64,000 nucleotides of DNA from NCBI GenBank assembly GCA_016208965.1, contig JACQXB010000006.1, positions 58,262 to 122,261 on the forward strand, in the 5' to 3' direction. This DNA comes from Nitrospirota bacterium (GTDB lineage Bacteria > Nitrospirota > Thermodesulfovibrionia > UBA6902 > DSMQ01). Below, one piece after another: positions 35,606-43,633 of the stretch. The notes beneath the pieces were generated by a model. That model did no database searches. It was not told the DNA's origin and saw nothing but the letters and a program-made list of their open reading frames with translations. How positions within the stretch are numbered: position 1 is the first letter of the stretch; every line of letters begins with the position of its first letter. A program made the translations under genes and the position numbers.

Positions 35606-35691
35606 AAAGGATTATTAAGATAAGCCATGAAAGATTTGATCCCGCAGCAAGCTATTGCACAAAGGATTTTTTGATAAGACATCAAAAGGTC

Positions 35692-35922
35692 ATGATAGAC
35701 AGGGACCTTGCTGAACTATACGGAGTGGAAACCAAGCACCTTAACAGACAGGTAAGGCGCAATATCCAGAGATTTCCTGAAGAATTCATGTTTCAGCTTA
35801 CCATTGAAGAACGGAATAAACTGGTGACAATTTGTCACCGGTTCAAAACAATGAAACACTCAATGACTCCACCTGAACCAAAACGCAAAAGAATTGGATT
35901 TCTTAGGGAAAAAGAGAAATAA
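35692..35922 (+). CDS. ORF6N-domain (KilA-N-like) protein, probably truncated
   Basis: MIDRDLAELYGVETKHLNRQVRRNIQRFPEEFMFQLT. Confidence 0.55.
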   Translation: MIDRDLAELYGVETKHLNRQVRRNIQRFPEEFMFQLTIEERNKLVTICHRFKTMKHSMTPPEPKRKRIGFLREKEK

Positions 35923-36328
35923 TAGCGAAGTTTAAATAGAAATATGCCAGCAAAGAAAAAAGATAATTTAGAAAAAGAGAAACTCCTTGCTGAGATTGAG
36001 CGGTTAAAGAAGGAATTAAAGAAAAGAAAGAACGAATGATAGAAATGGAGCTAAAACTGTTAAAATTAAAAGGCAGAAAATAAGAGGACAAAAACTGCAA
36101 CTTGAGGGAGATGTAATACAATGATGTCTAAAGAAGATTTGATAAGTAATATCCTCTCTATCCCTTCTGATGAAAGAAGTTATTTATTTACCACAGATAA
36201 AAGTAAATAAAATGGAAATCCTTATTTTACAAGCAGTTTGGCTGAGTTTATTTTCCTGCAGGAAGAATAAGAGGCTGAACAGTAAGGCAATATGAACAAC
36301 AAAAACCAAAAACTCAAACTCACGTGGA

Positions 36329-36553
36329 TTGGCAGGGAGAATTAGACGAGGTGAAAAAATAGCACAGCGTGCACTTCTCTTTGGCGCAGATGATTTAAAC
36401 GGCACAGTCATAGAGGAAAAAATTACCCATTCTGCAGGCGCGCTTTCAGACAATACAATGACAAGGGCTGAACTGGTGAATTTAATAAAAAAGGCAGGCA
36501 AGGTGCCGGTGGAGAGGGATTCGTTTTATAGACCGGTAAAAAGATTTCCTTAA
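36329..36553 (+). pseudogene. C-terminal fragment of a radical-SAM MqnC/MqnE/CofH-like gene
   Basis: 74 aa reading GADDLNGTVIEEKITHSAGA...RAELVNLIKKAGKVPVERDSFY, a typical C-terminus of this family. No N-terminal part upstream. Confidence 0.5.
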
Positions 36554-36686
36554 TTGACATCTTTTGCCGTAAATTGGTATAAAATCATTGGATGGGAAAT
36601 GGCTTTTAGTTCAATAATAATCCTCTATGGTATAATTAAAGTATAAATATCTTGTCACCGATATACTATGTAACGGTATATTCAAC

Positions 36687-37259
36687 ATGATAGAGACCTC
36701 CACCATAATCGAAGCATTGTGCTATATCCTCAAGAAATTAAAAAAAGCAGATAAAATCAAACTCGTCAAGCTGATATACCTTGCCGACAAGTACCATCTC
36801 ATCCGCTATGGAAGAACTATAACAAATGATGATTACTACGCAATGGAACATGGGCCAGTAGGTGCAACCGTTAAGGATGTCCTCAGCTTTGACCATTTTA
36901 ATATTCCCCCAAAAACATTCAAATATCTCTCAACCTTAATAGTCAAGGTTGATGAGAATCATTTTAGAGTAAATCCTGATGCGAAAATTACCTTCGATAT
37001 GCTGTCAGATACCGATAAGGAAGCCCTTGATTTTATTATTGAAAAATTTGGCGGTATGAATTCATGGCAATTAAGAAATTATACGCAGCAGTATCCTGAA
37101 TGGTATCAATATGAAGATATGCTCAAAAGCAGGCTTACAAAAAGAGAGCGGATTGATACAAAGGAATTATTATATACAACAAGAAAAAATGACATTCTAC
37201 GTATGCCCCGCAAACACGTCAAAGAGTCAGAAAAAATTCTGACAGGTAAATTTGACTGA
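36687..37259 (+). CDS. Panacea-domain (DUF4065, SocA-like) antitoxin candidate
   Basis: LVKLIYLADKYHLIRYGRTITNDDYYAMEHGPV... matches the DUF4065 N-terminal pattern. Confidence 0.65.
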   Translation: MIETSTIIEALCYILKKLKKADKIKLVKLIYLADKYHLIRYGRTITNDDYYAMEHGPVGATVKDVLSFDHFNIPPKTFKYLSTLIVKVDENHFRVNPDAKITFDMLSDTDKEALDFIIEKFGGMNSWQLRNYTQQYPEWYQYEDMLKSRLTKRERIDTKELLYTTRKNDILRMPRKHVKESEKILTGKFD

Positions 37260-37261
37260 TT

Positions 37262-37708
37262 GTGGACTTCCCGCCGAATTATATTGCTAAAACTTTATCA
37301 GGCTTCTGTGTATGCTACTTCAAAAATACAACTCATGACCCCGAAGCGCCGCCACATTATCATATAACTGTCCCTATTAGTGACGATTCAAGCCTTTTAT
37401 TGTGTATTATTACTTCCCAAGTTGAAAACAAAGCATGGTATTACCATAAAACCAATGAGGAAGCAGAATCATGTCTTGTAAGTGTAGATAAACACGATTT
37501 ACCTTTCTTAAAAAGAAAGAGTTTAATTGATTGCAATCAACCGGTACTCATACACAAAAACAAGTTTAGCAAAATAATTGACCCTGACCATAAATTTGAA
37601 GTTGTAACTCGAAATATTCCAAAAGAAATCAAAAAGAAAATCGTTAAAGCAATAAAAGACAGCCCGATTGTGAAACCTTTTATTAAGAAGCTTATAAAGT
37701 TTCCTTAG
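37262..37708 (+). CDS. Hypothetical protein, candidate toxin partner of the Panacea antitoxin
   Basis: 148 aa, starts 3 bp after the DUF4065 stop. No recognisable motifs. Lys-rich C-terminus. Confidence 0.4.
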   Translation: MDFPPNYIAKTLSGFCVCYFKNTTHDPEAPPHYHITVPISDDSSLLLCIITSQVENKAWYYHKTNEEAESCLVSVDKHDLPFLKRKSLIDCNQPVLIHKNKFSKIIDPDHKFEVVTRNIPKEIKKKIVKAIKDSPIVKPFIKKLIKFP

Positions 37709-37813
37709 GAAGAATTAATCACTAAACAGAGTAGTCATATATTTGTTATAATCTTTGAAAATTAGAAAAGTTCTCTATCCGAGAATTATCATGCTCATCA
37801 ATGAGAGGATAAA

Positions 37814-39808
37814 TTGAATAAATCTGACTACAAAACTCCAGAAGAAAGAATCGGCACTGATGAAATCTTTGACATGGTCTTTAGGGATTCATCGGTGAAA
37901 TATGGCTTGCAGGAGTTTTCTAAGGATATCTTAAAAAGAATAAGTGCTTTTGAAAAAGAAGATGGTAGGTTTTATATACGTTGCTTAAAAAGAGATAAAG
38001 ACATTTTTGTTTATGACAGAAATAAAAAAATGGGTAAGCCGGAAGAAGTTATTCGCCAGCTCTGGCTTATAAAGCTAACCAAAGAATATAAATATCCTCT
38101 TGACAGAATAGAAGTTGAGAAATCAGTTCACTTTGGCAGAGAAATTAGAGAAAAATCAGCAGATATTGTTTTATATAAAGAAGACAAAATCACGCCGTAC
38201 ATCGTTTTTGAACTGAAGCAGCCTAATGCCAAGAAAGCAGAAGAACAACTGAAATCATATCTAAGCGCTGAAGGTGCAGAAGGCGGAGTCTGGTCTAATG
38301 GTATTGAGAAATTCATACTTTACCGCCCTTATCCAAAAGAATATATTACTGTCCTGTCAGACATTCCTAATGTTAATCAGACATGGGATGACCTTTTTGA
38401 AGAAAAGTGGACTTATGGTGACCTGAAGGACAAGTTTGATCTTTCTTTTATTATTTCCCGACTTGAGGAAATGGTTTTAGCACAGGCAGGCGTAAATGTA
38501 TTTGAGGAAGTTTTCAAGTTAATCTATGCCAAGCTATATGATGAAGACCAGGCAAAAGATGTACGGACAAAAGAAGAAGTTCATTTCAGACAGTATAAAG
38601 ACCCAAAGAAAACCTATGTAATTATAAATGATGAGCTTTTCAAAGGAGCAATTGATGAATGGCAAGGGATTTTTAATCCATTATCAAAAATTGATTTAAC
38701 TCCTGAACAGTTACAGATATGTGTTCCTTTTCTGGAAAAAGTTAAATTTTTTGACTCTGGAAGAGAGGAATTGGAGATAATTGACCGTGCCTTTGAGCAT
38801 TTGATTGCTGAGGTTTCAAAGGGTCAAAAAGGACAATACTTTACACCCCGCAACGTTATTAAGATGTGTGTCAAAATGCTTAATCCTAAGAAAGATGAAT
38901 ATATCATTGACCCTGCCTGTGGTTCGGGAGGATTCTTGCTTCACACTATGTATTGGGTTTGGGATAATGATTTAAAATCTGTCTCCTTTTCAGCAAAACA
39001 AAAATATGCTAATCGCTATCTCTATGGAATTGATTTTGATGATAATATGCGCCGGATTTCTCAGGCATTGATGCTAATTGCCGGTGATGGCAGGCATAAT
39101 ATCTTTAAACGCAATGCATTAGATGGAAGGGACTGGATAGGGGAACAGGCAGAGGAAGCACGGACACAGTTGAAACCATTATTAGCCAGACAATACGAGG
39201 AAAACCGCAAGACTTATCGTTATCTTAATTTTGACTTATTGATGACTAATCCTCCATTTGCAGGCGAGATTACTGATTCAGGCTTACTGCGTCAATATGA
39301 GTTTGCAAAGAAGAATGGAAAACTCAAACAGAAAGTAGAACGACACCTACTTTTCATAGAACGTTCCTTAGATGCACTCTGTCCAGGCGGAAGAATGGCG
39401 ATAGTCTTACCCCAGGGAATTTATAATAATACAAATATGGAATGGCTGAGGCTCTGGCTTTTTGAAAAGGCACGAATCCTTGCAGTGGTCGGTTTGGAAG
39501 GAAATACCTTTAAGCTCCCAGCTCCTGCAAAAGGCACAGGGACAAAGACATCTGTTTTATTTCTGCGTAAATGGGATGAAGATGAAAAGCCTTTAGAAGA
39601 TTATCCTATTTTTATGGCAGTGTCTAAAAAATCAGGTAAGGACAATTCAGGAGAGTATGTATATCTTAACGAGAAAGGGCACAGGATAAAATCAGAGGGT
39701 GGCATCTTTGAATCACATGAGAATTTAAGGCTTGATGACGATTTAGATGAAATTGCAGACGAATTTGTAAAGTTTGCAAAAAAAGAGAAATTTATGTGGT
39801 GGAGATAG
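37814..39808 (+). CDS. R-M enzyme A subunit: N-terminal HsdR_N-like PD-(D/E)xK nuclease fused to gamma-class N6-adenine MTase (BcgI-A-like)
   Basis: 664 aa. N-terminal KSADIVLYKEDKITPYIVFELKQP (D...ELK), then motif I IIDPACGSGGFLL and motif IV LLMTNPPFAG. No helicase motifs. Confidence 0.7.
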   Translation: MNKSDYKTPEERIGTDEIFDMVFRDSSVKYGLQEFSKDILKRISAFEKEDGRFYIRCLKRDKDIFVYDRNKKMGKPEEVIRQLWLIKLTKEYKYPLDRIEVEKSVHFGREIREKSADIVLYKEDKITPYIVFELKQPNAKKAEEQLKSYLSAEGAEGGVWSNGIEKFILYRPYPKEYITVLSDIPNVNQTWDDLFEEKWTYGDLKDKFDLSFIISRLEEMVLAQAGVNVFEEVFKLIYAKLYDEDQAKDVRTKEEVHFRQYKDPKKTYVIINDELFKGAIDEWQGIFNPLSKIDLTPEQLQICVPFLEKVKFFDSGREELEIIDRAFEHLIAEVSKGQKGQYFTPRNVIKMCVKMLNPKKDEYIIDPACGSGGFLLHTMYWVWDNDLKSVSFSAKQKYANRYLYGIDFDDNMRRISQALMLIAGDGRHNIFKRNALDGRDWIGEQAEEARTQLKPLLARQYEENRKTYRYLNFDLLMTNPPFAGEITDSGLLRQYEFAKKNGKLKQKVERHLLFIERSLDALCPGGRMAIVLPQGIYNNTNMEWLRLWLFEKARILAVVGLEGNTFKLPAPAKGTGTKTSVLFLRKWDEDEKPLEDYPIFMAVSKKSGKDNSGEYVYLNEKGHRIKSEGGIFESHENLRLDDDLDEIADEFVKFAKKEKFMWWR

Positions 39809-39811
39809 AAC

Positions 39812-40591
39812 ATGTTATTTTTTATAGATGAAAGTTGGCAATCAACTCAGGATGGCAAATACAAAGTCGGAGTGTTATCGGCGATTCAAATAAAAAGTCA
39901 TGATTTTAATGAGTGCTCCAAGCAGATATATGAACTTAAAATTAAAAATTTAGGATACCGTGCTGGAGATTTAGAAATTAAGGGAAGAGAAATTTTAAGA
40001 AACTATCTTTTTGAACTTGAGTCAAAAGGCATAAAATCAAAAGAACTAAATCTCGTTAGAGATATTCTTACCTATATGCAGACTTTAGGTATAAAACTTT
40101 TTGCTTCTATTGTATTCTCAAAAAAGGAAATTGATTTGGCTTGTGCTAATGTAAATCAACTTGAAAGACCATTTTTCTTTTTATTTGAACGCATAGATTT
40201 ATTTATGAAGGAAAATTATCCAGGACTTATGGCTAAGTTAATCTTTGATGATAGAGGGATACAATTCAATAAAAAAATATCAAAAAGTGTGAGTAATTTC
40301 TTCCATAAAAGTAGCATTGGCCAGGAGTTTGATACTATTATTAAAGTTCCTTTCTTTGCAATCTCCACAGAGAATGTAGGAATACAAATGGCAGATATAG
40401 TTGCTCATATTTTGGGTAGCAGATTTACAGGAGATAAAAAACAAATAGAATTTTTCAAGAAAGTTAAAAGTCTTGAGTTTATAAGCAGAACTCTTGTTGA
40501 TATAAGAGGAAAAATGTTACAACTCCTTGGATTTAAAGTAGTAAAAGAGAAAGAGGCTGGCGATTTATTCAGTCCGGGAAGAACTGTATAA
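39812..40591 (+). CDS. DUF3800-family protein embedded in the R-M operon
   Basis: 259 aa starting MLFFIDESWQ, the DUF3800 N-terminal signature. 3 bp after the A subunit stop and 100 bp before the S subunit. Confidence 0.6.
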   Translation: MLFFIDESWQSTQDGKYKVGVLSAIQIKSHDFNECSKQIYELKIKNLGYRAGDLEIKGREILRNYLFELESKGIKSKELNLVRDILTYMQTLGIKLFASIVFSKKEIDLACANVNQLERPFFFLFERIDLFMKENYPGLMAKLIFDDRGIQFNKKISKSVSNFFHKSSIGQEFDTIIKVPFFAISTENVGIQMADIVAHILGSRFTGDKKQIEFFKKVKSLEFISRTLVDIRGKMLQLLGFKVVKEKEAGDLFSPGRTV

Positions 40592-40691
40592 AACTATAAG
40601 AAAGCTTGAAAGCTCCCTACCAGCCTCAAACTTATTATAGCTTATGTTAGGGTAAAAATCAATAAATTTTAGCGGGTGAAATTTTAAAGAA

Positions 40692-42038
40692 ATGGTCACT
40701 TATTCAATCATTAAGAAATCTCAAATTGAGGGCATATATCGGCTGGATGCTGAGTATTATCAGCCAGAATATTTATCTTTAATGAAATCTTTAAAAATAA
40801 TACCAAATGTTGAATTAAACTCCCTTGCTTTTGTGACTGACGGAATTCACTCCTCAATCGATTATGATAATAAAAGTAACATCAGGTGTTTATCTGCACA
40901 ATCTGTACAAGATAACTATTTTGATTTATCAGCAAATACTTTTATTTCAGAAGATCAACATAAAGTTAATTTAAGGACAAGTCTAAAAGTAGGAGATGCT
41001 ATACTTTCATCTGTAGGAACAATCGGTAATTGTGCCGTTATAACAGATAGTATTCTACCAGCAAATGCAGACCGCCATGTAGCAATAATAAGGTTATCTG
41101 CCAATAAACTATCACCGTATTTCTTATCGGTATTTTTAAATTCTAAATACGGAAGATTTCAAACCTTAAGAGAATCTACAGGGAATGTTCAACCTAATTT
41201 ATTTATCGATAAAATCAAAAAACTGATAATTCCAACGATAAAAAACCACAGAGAGATTAGCGAATTGGCTGAAAAATCTAACGATATGATACTTGCTGCT
41301 AATTTGCTTTACTCCCAAGCCGAAAATCTGTTTTTAGAAGAATTAGGATTGAAGAATTTTAAACCACAAGAGAACTTGTCCTATGTTGTTAATCTCTCTG
41401 ATGTAAAATCCGCTCGCCGTGCCGATGCCGAATATTTCCAGCCGAAGTATAAAAGGATGGTTGAGAAAATCAAAAAACACAATTTGAGTCTACTTGGCGA
41501 TCCGGTTACAATGAAGAAAGGATTCGAGCCGGGAAGCAACGAATATCAAGATAAAGGAAAACTATTTATTCGCGTGAGCAGCATTTCAAAACATGGAATA
41601 ATTGATAAAGACCAGAAATATTTAAGTGGAGAATTGTATCAAAAATTAAGAAAAGATTTTGAGCCAAAAATTGGTGAGATATTACTGACTAAAGACGCAA
41701 CGCCCGGCATTGCCTATGTATTGAAAGAGGCTATTGAAGGAGTTGTGGCAAGCGGCATTATGCGTTTAAAACTTAAAGAGAATATTGAAGCGGAGTATTT
41801 GACTCTCTGCATCAATTCTATTGTCGGTCAAATGCAGATTGAACGTGATGCAGGCGGTTCAATAATTGCGCATTGGAAGCCAGAACAAATTAAGAACTTA
41901 CAACTCCCTATATTCCCTAAACCAACTCAGCAAAAAATCGCTGACTTAGTCCGTCAGTCCCATGAGGCAAGAAAAAAGGCAAAAGAACTCTTGGAAGAAG
42001 CAAAAAGAAAAGTTGAGGAGGAAATTGAAAATAATTAA
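40692..42038 (+). CDS. R-M specificity subunit (HsdS-like, two TRDs)
   Basis: 448 aa with conserved HsdS repeats LPIPPL...KIADLV / QQKIADLVRQ. Confidence 0.8.
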   Translation: MVTYSIIKKSQIEGIYRLDAEYYQPEYLSLMKSLKIIPNVELNSLAFVTDGIHSSIDYDNKSNIRCLSAQSVQDNYFDLSANTFISEDQHKVNLRTSLKVGDAILSSVGTIGNCAVITDSILPANADRHVAIIRLSANKLSPYFLSVFLNSKYGRFQTLRESTGNVQPNLFIDKIKKLIIPTIKNHREISELAEKSNDMILAANLLYSQAENLFLEELGLKNFKPQENLSYVVNLSDVKSARRADAEYFQPKYKRMVEKIKKHNLSLLGDPVTMKKGFEPGSNEYQDKGKLFIRVSSISKHGIIDKDQKYLSGELYQKLRKDFEPKIGEILLTKDATPGIAYVLKEAIEGVVASGIMRLKLKENIEAEYLTLCINSIVGQMQIERDAGGSIIAHWKPEQIKNLQLPIFPKPTQQKIADLVRQSHEARKKAKELLEEAKRKVEEEIENN

Positions 42039-42044
42039 TTAACC

Positions 42045-42612
42045 ACGACATCAAATACAGTTTTATAAAAATTGTCCTTGAATACCCAGTAGCTTTGCTA
42101 CTGGGATGAAAAGGACATCCTGACGAATAGTCAGGATAGTTTTTTGTTAAAATACGGGCATGAGCCCATTGAGGAGAAGCAAGCACTGTGTATATGACCT
42201 GAAGTACCATTTTGTATGGATACCAAAGTATCGGAAGGAAGTATTGAAGAGTAGGGTAGCAAGTAGGATGAGGGAGATATTTGGGGAGATAGCGGAGCAA
42301 TATGAGATTGAGATAGATACGATGGAAGTAATGGATGATCATGTGCATTTGTTTTTGTCTGTGCCACCGAAGTATTCTCCTGCAGTAGTAGTACAACGAA
42401 TAAAGAGTATATCTGCGAAGATAATATTCCGAGAATTTCCAGAGATAAAGAAGAGCCTTTGGGGTGGTGAGCTTTGGAATGACGGATACTTTGTACGTTC
42501 TGTTGGCGATAAAGTAACAGCCGAAGTAATCCGTAAATACATTAAATATCAGCATAATGAACAAATTGGTTTTGAGTTTTAATGCCCCGCAGTTCTACTG
42601 CGGGGTTCTTTA
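42045..42612 (+). mobile_element. IS200/IS605-family insertion sequence (tnpA only)
   Basis: TnpA at 42160..42582 has HuH motif HVHLFL and a Y1 transposase fold. Subterminal hairpins cccagtagctttgctactggg, cctgacgaatagtcagg and ccccgcagttctactgcgggg. Confidence 0.8.
42160..42582 (+). CDS. tnpA: IS200/IS605 transposase TnpA
   Basis: 140 aa reading MSPLRRSKHCVYDLKYHFVWIPKYR...HVHLFL. Confidence 0.9.
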   Translation: MSPLRRSKHCVYDLKYHFVWIPKYRKEVLKSRVASRMREIFGEIAEQYEIEIDTMEVMDDHVHLFLSVPPKYSPAVVVQRIKSISAKIIFREFPEIKKSLWGGELWNDGYFVRSVGDKVTAEVIRKYIKYQHNEQIGFEF

Positions 42613-42692
42613 CTTAATTGTTTAATTACATCAAGAGCGAAAATAAGAAGGGCAAAAAACTTTTTGGTGGAATAGTCGCAAACTCTGACCCA

Positions 42693-42789
42693 AGAAATTA
42701 TTGCGGAAGATGGGTTTGCTTTGATAAGACAAGCAAAGAATTAAAAGATAATGATTTTAGTAATTGGAAGAATTTGGAGCTTTAATTTG
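42693..42789. repeat. Direct repeat copy 1 flanking the ParE-type TA cassette
   Basis: gaaattattgcggaagatgggtttgctttgataagacaagcaaagaattaaaagataatgattttagtaattggaagaatttggagctttaat is ~85% identical to 43491-43586. Confidence 0.8.
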
Positions 42790-42889
42790 TTTACAACATC
42801 ACCTACCGCCTGCCTGTCGGCAGACATGGCATGGGGCGGGATAGCGAGGATGAGAAATTTAGTATAATATATAAAAAGGAGGTAGCGTT

Positions 42890-43111
42890 ATGGGAACTAT
42901 TAGCAATGAACTTGTAGCAAAAATTAAATCTTTGCCGGACAACGAAAAGATAGAGCTGGTAGATTCTATCTTAATTCAGCTTGACAAGCCTGACCCTGAA
43001 ATTGACCGTGTTTGGGTAGAGGAGGCTCGCAAACGCTGGCAAGCATACAAAATGGGCAAAGTTGAGACTGTGTCTTATGAGCAGGTAATGGACAAGTATC
43101 GCACCAGATGA
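42890..43111 (+). CDS. Putative addiction-module antitoxin
   Basis: 73 aa. Overlaps the downstream ParE-like gene by 4 bp. Confidence 0.55.
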   Translation: MGTISNELVAKIKSLPDNEKIELVDSILIQLDKPDPEIDRVWVEEARKRWQAYKMGKVETVSYEQVMDKYRTR

Positions 43112-43419
43112 AAGTTCGTTTTTTAAAACCTGCGCAGTCGGAAGTTAACGATACCTTTGCATGGTATGATGCCCATTCACACAGCCTCGGCGTACAATTC
43201 TTGGATGATCTTGACCGTGCAGTCAGAAGAATTGTGGCATATCCCCTTGCAAACACAATAATTGAAGATGGTTTTCGGCGTTGTCTTTTATCAAGATTCC
43301 CTTATGGAATAATTTATGGCCTTGATGCTGAAACTGTTATTGTCATCGCAGTAGCCCATCTGCACAGAGAGCCGCGATATTGGATTGACAGACTGCTTGA
43401 ACAGAAAATCAATCTGTAA
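43108..43419 (+). CDS. RelE/ParE-family toxin
   Basis: 103 aa reading ...FPYGIIYGLDAETVIVIAVAHLHREPRYW. Confidence 0.6.
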   Translation: MKVRFLKPAQSEVNDTFAWYDAHSHSLGVQFLDDLDRAVRRIVAYPLANTIIEDGFRRCLLSRFPYGIIYGLDAETVIVIAVAHLHREPRYWIDRLLEQKINL

Positions 43420-43490
43420 CGACAACATGATTCGACCATGTGCTGGCAAAGCACTGTGGCTTCACAGCCGAGGATCTAGACTTCATCCCA

Positions 43491-43586
43491 GAGAAATTAT
43501 CGTGGCAGATGGATTTATTTTGATAAGCCGAAAAAAGATTTAAAAGATAATGATTTTGGTAATTGGAAGAATTTGGAGATTTAACC
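43491..43586. repeat. Direct repeat copy 2
   Basis: gaaattatcgtggcagatggatttattttgataagccgaaaaaagatttaaaagataatgattttggtaattggaagaatttggagatttaacc. Confidence 0.8.
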
Positions 43587-43633
43587 CGCTTGACTATCTA
43601 TCAAGTAACGAGGTTAAGAGGATTTGTTAAAAA

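Follow-up and report, generated by a model that had tools for sequence, protein, structure and literature searches.

The type IIB restriction-modification (R-M) enzymes BcgI and BsaXI combine a PD-(D/E)XK nuclease and an N6-adenine methyltransferase (MTase) in one chain, use a separate HsdS-like subunit with two target recognition domains (TRDs) and have no ATP motor (PMC3592470; PMC11997821). Foreign genes nested between the genes of R-M, BREX and DISARM systems, such as PrrC in EcoprrI, have been described as 'guilt-by-embedding', and genes embedded in R-M operons are enriched in defence functions (bioRxiv 10.1101/2024.01.29.577857). Eleven mutually unrelated RNA motifs (DUF3800-I to -XI) are found near DUF3800 genes, and no functional hypothesis was given for them (Weinberg et al. 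2017, PMC5737381). Here, we describe a locus of a Nitrospirota bacterium in which a DUF3800 gene lies between the two genes, A and S, of a type IIB-like R-M system. The locus is part of a stretch of 64,000 nt of contig JACQXB010000006.1 (the window). In our reading, to which we assign a probability of about 60%, the DUF3800 gene and a small RNA form an optional mobile cassette of ~0.9 kb carried between A and S.

The locus comprised the following features (positions are in window numbering unless another locus, with an L number, is named):

37814-39808, plus strand: A subunit, R-M fusion protein, 664 aa, TTG start
39812-40591, plus strand: DUF3800 protein, 259 aa
~40541-40630, minus strand: predicted structured small RNA gene, convergent with DUF3800 (covariation, strand asymmetry, covariance model)
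40634-40662, minus strand: predicted sigma-70-like promoter of the small RNA, TTGATT-17-TATAAT (consensus scan; 5-6 nt ahead of helix P1)
40692-42038, plus strand: S subunit, HsdS-like, two TRDs, 448 aa

A, DUF3800 and S were three co-directional plus-strand genes in the open reading frame (ORF) listing of the window, and DUF3800 started 3 bp past the stop codon of A. This three-gene layout had been put forward in the original prediction, and the ORFs were found where it had placed them. The length of A was that of the NCBI-annotated protein, and the window proteins were a 100% match to proteins annotated in a Nitrospirae metagenome-assembled genome. The original prediction had treated the cargo as a single gene; instead, it is a two-part cassette of DUF3800 and a convergent structured small RNA.

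The window system shares with BcgI and BsaXI the fused nuclease and MTase, the separate two-TRD subunit and the lack of an ATP motor. It differs in the size of A (664 aa vs 916 aa in RM.BsaXI), in its faint nuclease similarity and in the extra cassette between its two genes. Two-sided cleavage and dependence on S-adenosylmethionine, features of BcgI and BsaXI, are predictions for A+S. As in guilt-by-embedding, the R-M genes flank a foreign gene that points the same way as they do, and the cargo at the junction differs between strains. However, the host system is type IIB-like and not type I, and the cargo includes an opposite-strand non-coding RNA gene, which is invisible to protein-based surveys. 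A functional coupling to the host system, like the masking of PrrC and EcoprrI, would be conjectural for the cassette. The small RNA resembles DUF3800-I to -XI in being a structured RNA tied to DUF3800; those motifs lie on either strand, and several have a terminator-like end (PMC5737381). It differs in that it matches no Rfam 15 model and that its strand, promoter, 3' end and coding overlap are defined.

Published work already covers defence candidates embedded in R-M operons, and DUF3800-linked RNAs as a class. New are an RNA family that Rfam lacks, the definition of its gene structure and of its overlap with a coding sequence, and the finding that the embedded 'gene' is a protein-RNA cassette.

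The structured small RNA opposite DUF3800

A conserved block past the DUF3800 stop codon was found by comparing loci. An alignment of 18 loci folded into a three-helix junction with the following parts (all from the alignment fold):

40627-40619 paired with 40561-40553, minus strand: helix P1
40618-40599, minus strand: P2 hairpin
40598-40595, minus strand: junction UAUA
40594-40562, minus strand: P3, long hairpin
40552-40541, minus strand: U-rich tail

Read as minus-strand RNA, the alignment reached -45.5 kcal/mol in RNAalifold with 30 pairs, 25 of them with compensatory double changes. The share of paired cells was 96.5%, which was reached by none of 500 shuffles, and slid controls gave 34-51%. 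There were 92 G-U cells in the minus-strand reading vs 4 in the plus-strand reading. Because G-U cells and pairing are far higher there, the RNA is predicted to be made from the minus strand. The plus-strand reading (-17.9 kcal/mol, 80% pairing, many A-C mismatches) was rejected in its favour. The fold energy was -23.2 kcal/mol on the plus strand vs -32.2 kcal/mol on the minus strand. Since the plus-strand fold is weaker and is followed by no T-run, the element seems to pose no obvious block to read-through into S.

The promoter pattern consisted of a TTGACA-like box, a 16- or 17-nt spacer and a TATAAT-like box. A site with at least 8 of 12 matches ended 4-6 nt before P1 in 14 of the 19 close loci. 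Past the closing helix, the U-rich tail contained 6-10 T in 12 nt. Judged by these signals, the small RNA looks like an independent transcription unit, a candidate gene with its own promoter and tail.

A covariance model built from 18 sequences scored 72-98 bits in all close loci (91 bits in the window), and the position and strand of the element never varied. Six loci outside the training set also matched (L014, L016 and L120-L123). Every intact DUF3800 gene of the subfamily that was examined had the RNA opposite it, overlapping or abutting its 3' end, and the only copy without the RNA (L017) was truncated at about residue 189. RNAs with a shortened P3 were present beside DUF3800 proteins with only 25-28% identity, namely in L024, L027 and L039 (Actinobacteria/Solirubrobacterales) and in L031 (unclassified bacterium). 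A further match in L105 (26.8 bits) lay inside a 556-aa ORF, a putative membrane protein by its sequence, and was discarded as a false positive.

No Rfam 15 model matched the RNA at E values up to 10 (window 40450-40750 and L020 3380-3680), and the Rfam scan of the window returned nothing at gathering score. Of the earlier motifs, DUF3800-I, -V, -VII and -IX have Rfam models, and other loci gave matches to two of them. DUF3800-V was found at L013 13489-13581 and DUF3800-VII at L026 14237-14323, both on the minus strand and 2.7-3.3 kb from the DUF3800 gene. As L013 also has the new RNA, its type I operon carries two distinct DUF3800-linked RNAs. On the comparative evidence, the assignment of this RNA family, absent from Rfam, as a new member of the DUF3800-linked class is well supported.

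In the window, the DUF3800 stop codon (40589-40591) is located inside P3, so that the final 17 codons (aa 243-259; KEKEAGDLFSPGRTV) are complementary to the RNA. Where the ORF reads through the RNA gene (L009-L012), it is extended to 274-280 aa. The read-through proteins P0026, P0059, P0062 and P0064 ended in tails of low complexity, probably a by-product of the RNA sequence.

This overlap bears on how the pair could work. txpA/RatA is a convergent type I toxin-antitoxin (TA) pair, and the window RNA likewise converges on the mRNA and overlaps its 3' end; the window protein, however, is a 259-aa RNase H-like protein and not a small membrane peptide. The RNA might act mainly as a cis-antisense regulator, as in such pairs, or the polarity might be reversed, with a harmful RNA that is processed or neutralised by DUF3800 as an RNase. 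The near-consensus promoter of the RNA, its very stable fold and its overlap with the DUF3800 mRNA in the window are in line with this. So is a strain-specific Legionella DUF3800 gene that was scored essential by a transposon sequencing (Tn-seq) screen (bioRxiv 10.1101/2020.10.01.323287). However, in L013, L015 and L019-L021, the RNA lies wholly past the stop codon, and its conserved unpaired nucleotides and three-way junction suggest recognition of shape and not plain antisense pairing. Retron-associated proteins, moreover, are generally regarded as toxic effectors. DUF3800 is a protein of type VII retrons (PMC7736814), which argues for an effector on the protein side. We consider a reversed or antisense arrangement distinctly unlikely.

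A second resemblance was noted near the start of the gene. Codons 7-10 of DUF3800 (GAAAGTTGGCA; window 39827-39840; GAAAGYTGGCA) resemble GAAAGAGGCTGGCGA (40548-40562), the complement of the RNA 3' strand, so the 3' part of the RNA could also pair near the catalytic DE codons. Ser8 was encoded by AGY in 21 of 22 loci. Shared descent may explain the AGY, and this second pairing site was given no weight.

The A/S junction and the distribution of DUF3800

DUF3800 is portable cargo and not a fixed subunit of the restriction enzyme, because most A-S pairs are empty, others carry unrelated cargo and the subfamily also occurs in type I operons and alone. Both genes could be judged in 62 of 80 related metagenome loci. 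S followed A directly in 42 of these 62 loci, with a spacing of -4 to +19 nt, and inserts of 236-2197 nt were present in the other 20. Only one of the 80 loci (L040) had a window-type DUF3800 at this junction.

The original prediction had left open whether DUF3800 was a hitch-hiking defence gene or a third component of the system. In the latter case, DUF3800, with or without the RNA, would be an integral part or regulator of the R-M enzyme, for example in restriction control or establishment. Its position 3 bp after A on the same strand, with apparent co-transcription, fits such a role, as does the recurrence of the order A-DUF3800-S in L040, L120 and L121. The survey counts speak against it: 42 of the 62 related pairs had no intervening gene, and 19 others had different cargo. 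The subfamily was also found in type I operons and as solitary copies flanked by housekeeping genes, and in L121, A is shortened to 304 aa while the cassette and S are kept. We regard a third component as highly improbable; the hitch-hiking part of the prediction fits the empty pairs and the varied cargo elsewhere.

Four of the inserts formed one cluster, whose scanned member had an NYN domain (Pfam), and two formed another, with DUF4145 on scan. Single inserts encoded a 600-aa AAA_15 ATPase (OLD-like), DUF6119 and DUF5655 proteins (all Pfam), an ORF6N-like protein (resembling the ORF6N fragment of the window; not scanned) and several small or unassigned proteins. The insert of L092 was a DUF3800 gene whose product had no significant BLASTP similarity to the window protein. 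As the inserts are diverse, the A/S junction is a recurrent landing site. No target-site duplications were evident at the cassette borders when filled and empty junctions were read, although no repeat search was run. Junctions with alternative inserts were those of L067, L082, L094, L113, L105, L110, L106, L107, L092, L088 and L091. Several of the cargo proteins had R-x4-6-H motifs and appeared HEPN-like by eye, and small membrane proteins were also seen.

The window protein matched DUF3800 (PF12686) with 46.5 bits (cut-off 21), and its fold is RNase H/PIWI-like. In 30 sequences, D6 and E7 of the N-terminal DE motif and Q192 and D195 of the C-terminal QxxD motif were invariant, and the invariant residues also included E55, E126, D146 and D147. 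The C-terminal tail (aa 248-259) was disordered in the AlphaFold2 (AF2) model, with a predicted local distance difference test (pLDDT) score of <50, and some homologues had no such tail. The match to PADLOC PDC-M04A, one of the defence candidates from the guilt-by-embedding study (bioRxiv 10.1101/2024.01.29.577857), was weak (20.9 bits, E 5e-5; 26.3 bits for the L013 homologue), and no PDC-M04 partner gene was identified.

The subfamily is tight, with 54-87% identity among the 120 best hits, and its named sources were Nitrospirae, Elusimicrobia, Omnitrophica and Syntrophorhabdaceae. A survey of DUF3800 neighbourhoods for R-M linkage had been suggested with the original prediction. For the subfamily studied here, ~1/4 to 1/3 of the distinct loci fell exactly in the methyltransferase/specificity (M/S) junctions of two R-M types, which is a marked preference. 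The nearest relatives (84-87% identity) were again found in A-S junctions (L040, L120 and L121). In L121 (2919-6089), A was cut to a 304-aa MTase fragment and the DUF3800-RNA cassette and S were intact; the cassette may thus outlive its host R-M system.

The second R-M type was type I. The order in L013, L019, L020 and L021 was hsdM, DUF3800, a gene for 358-369 aa or an AAA_14 ATPase, hsdS and other inserts. A canonical hsdR ended the operon in L013, L019 and L020; that of L021 was not examined. The 358-369-aa gene was seen directly after the cassette at L013 10892-11971, L019 11024-12133 and L020 3620-4696. Its product had no Pfam family and no convincing PADLOC match, is not encoded in the window and may be a further cassette partner. 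In one locus, DUF3800 lay 4 bp after the gene of a 988-aa ResIII protein.

Solitary copies had varied neighbours: Fic and GNAT; radical SAM; an NrdD-type reductase and radical SAM; HisG; outer-membrane efflux; and PilZ. Mobile neighbours were a serine recombinase (L005), Tn7-like TnsA/B-TniB-TniQ genes (L123 732-6511) and an HTH_17-rich element (L122); the latter two are possible vehicles for the spread of the cassette. The cassette is autonomous, as the DUF3800-RNA pair recurs beside mobile elements, among housekeeping genes and at the hsdM-hsdS junctions of type I operons. In L005/L016, the solitary cassette after the serine recombinase had a type I R-M operon only a few kb away (~330-4300 in L005), whose hsdR and hsdM genes flank an AbiEi/AbiEii pair.

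The A and S subunits and their surroundings

The R-M system itself is of an ordinary, known kind. Pfam placed a PD-(D/E)XK nuclease domain (HSDR_N_2, E 1e-21) at aa 76-185 of A (~nt 38039-38368) and a gamma-class N6-adenine MTase (N6_Mtase, E 2e-32) at aa 322-607 (~nt 38777-39634), and found no helicase domain. The original prediction had named the same two domains and the missing helicase, and its motifs were located in A: ADIVLY at 116, VFELK at 131, DPACGSGGF at 366 and NPPF at 479. S matched Pfam Methylase_S and, over its full length, PADLOC Specificity_I in two stretches, as expected from its earlier description as a two-TRD HsdS homologue.

The closest solved relative of A was the type IIB enzyme RM.BsaXI (E 5e-28 for the single sequence, 4e-32 for the profile), and type I HsdM chains scored far below it. 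The profile alignment was collinear, with A 70-142 on BsaXI 41-114 and A 228-591 on BsaXI 234-626. In the first segment, E102, D117, E133 and K135 of A, which were invariant across 17 homologues, align on E73, D90, E105 and K107 of BsaXI. The cryo-electron microscopy study of BsaXI found these to be catalytic by mutagenesis and conserved across type IIB enzymes (PMC11997821).

In a classical type I system, hsdM and hsdS are accompanied by a gene for HsdR, whose motor is a superfamily 2 helicase. A tblastn search with a single type I HsdR, that of L013, gave no match in the 64-kb window or in the 80 related metagenome loci, and no such gene set was found. Long flanks (at least 4 kb upstream or at least 6 kb downstream) were available for 31 related loci, and 21 of these had no other ORF of at least 650 aa. 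None of the large ORFs in the remaining 10 encoded HsdR. They were housekeeping or other defence genes: Lon, PheT, GyrA, PriA, a YfhO-like membrane protein, a serine recombinase, a complex I chain-5-type subunit (Proton_antipo), an SMC-like ATPase, a TOTE primase-helicase and GmrSD. Together with the collinear match and the four catalytic residues, this bears out the earlier assignment to type IIB rather than type I and the absence of a nearby hsdR.

Several points weigh against this assignment. A matched PADLOC PDLC03034 over its full length (672 positions, 544 bits), which is labelled 'type I MTase', and JGI labels the A family 'type I M protein'. The AF2 model of A, built with 17 close homologues, had a pLDDT of 40, and the restriction activity of A+S is a prediction from conserved residues only. 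Taken alone, the nuclease segment matched BsaXI weakly (12.9 bits), and a direct sequence search of the N-terminal 229 aa of A against the PDB gave no significant match. The nuclease assignment therefore rests on Pfam and the motif-level match.

These labels, the weak segment match and the missing AF2 structure would also suit an orphan, type I-like M+S pair that acts as a methyltransferase only, with no active nuclease in the N-terminal domain of A. This is quite improbable in view of the invariance of all four catalytic residues and the HSDR_N_2 match. In addition, the family is highly conserved and widespread and its S genes diversify fast, as expected for a restricting system. The identity of A was 83-94% among the best 120 of >7,800 hits, whose named sources came from several phyla, and that of S across related loci was 29-77%. 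We interpret a conserved A and a variable S as the mark of a mobile system with shuffled specificity domains.

A type IIB-like, self-contained two-gene R-M system without an ATP motor is thus supported by the domain and motif evidence. By analogy with BcgI and BsaXI, A and S would form an A2S assembly, which would modify a bipartite site by methylation and, where the site is unmodified, cleave the DNA on its two sides. Scores for equivalogs (NCBIfam) of the methylation-associated defence system (MADS) were well below cut-off (A 273 bits vs 720 for MAD2, S 154 vs 400 for MAD5; other mad genes were not searched). The A family, with >7,800 close relatives, is filed as type I M despite its type IIB hallmarks, and this label is worth correcting.

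Two further signals at the borders of the operon came from consensus scans only:

37723-37752, plus strand: possible A-operon promoter, sigma-70-like, TAAACA-18-TATAAT (TG present; weak)
42117-42137, no strand assigned: terminator-like hairpin with T-runs in both directions, operon end

The promoter call is weak because promoter-like sites in the region were only as many as expected by chance. Upstream of A (36687-37708, plus strand), a 190-aa gene with a Panacea (SocA-like) antitoxin domain is followed 2 bp on by a 148-aa gene without a Pfam family, and the two are likely a TA pair. The pair is also present upstream of A in L040 (92% and 88% identity). The island (35606-43633) further contains an ORF6N fragment, a CofH_C fragment, the R-M system with its cassette, an IS200-type TnpA and a ParE-type TA pair. 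It is bounded by a 279-aa and a 470-aa gene, which, going by their sequences, may encode the two subunits of an NfnAB/sulfide-dehydrogenase-type oxidoreductase.

Possible function and meaning of the cassette

Type VII retrons have DUF3800 either as the associated protein or as a fused domain (PMC7736814), and a Cas12a2 branch has it as an accessory (PMC10910872). A role in defence, with DUF3800 as the effector, is indirectly suggested by these ties, the RNase H/PIWI-like fold, the embedding in R-M operons, the weak PDC-M04A match and the defence domains of other cargo. We tentatively propose, at somewhat less than even odds, that the cassette is a TA-like back-up defence module. DUF3800 would be the nuclease effector, and the cognate RNA would hold it inactive or be its sensor. 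Riding in an R-M operon would give the cassette co-expression and co-transfer.

Two described types of system come close to such a module. Type III TA systems of the ToxIN kind are also small mobile modules of a nuclease-fold protein and a cognate small RNA in defence contexts. However, the window RNA has no tandem repeats and lies downstream on the opposite strand, not upstream on the same strand. Type VII retrons also join a DUF3800 protein with an N-terminal DE motif to a structured non-coding nucleic acid (PMC7736814), but the window cassette has no reverse transcriptase, and its RNA is unrelated and convergently transcribed.

Some observations do not favour the defence proposal. No viral contig was found to encode the window DUF3800 subfamily, so there is no direct phage link. 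Unlike a type III antitoxin, the RNA occurs in a single copy and runs convergent to its protein gene. Given the Legionella gene that was scored essential, the direction of control could be reversed, with DUF3800 antitoxin-like.

The cassette could also be a purely selfish addiction or mobile module without a defence role, for which R-M junctions are merely insertion-tolerant and co-transferred (a 'genomic sink'). Many copies lie between housekeeping genes or by mobile elements (e.g. L005, L123 and L122), and the Legionella DUF3800 gene behaves as an addiction component (bioRxiv 10.1101/2020.10.01.323287). On the other hand, the ~1/4-1/3 of distinct loci in M/S junctions is far above the share of these junctions among all intergenic sites, the other A/S cargo has defence-type domains, and DUF3800 is tied to retrons and Cas12a2 in the literature. 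We therefore consider a selfish module unlikely and continue to favour the defence proposal.

The cassette adds an RNA family to the unexplained DUF3800-linked set, and for this family the strand, promoter and 3' end are defined, as is a strict coupling to the protein. That the cassette sits inside R-M operons suggests a defence role. Non-coding partners of this kind are overlooked by gene-based surveys of 'embedded defence'. At ~0.9 kb and with two parts, the cassette is a compact and directly testable handle on an unexplained RNA-protein association. A broader and somewhat doubtful idea is that DUF3800 proteins and their cognate RNAs, that is, the new motif and the eleven unrelated motifs, form one widespread RNA-protein defence or TA class. 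If this were true, an RNase H/PIWI-fold effector restrained or armed by a dedicated small RNA would be the counterpart of type VII retrons without a reverse transcriptase. Such a class would solve a puzzle that has been open since 2017, and its RNA partners would be missed by protein-only surveys of embedded defence.

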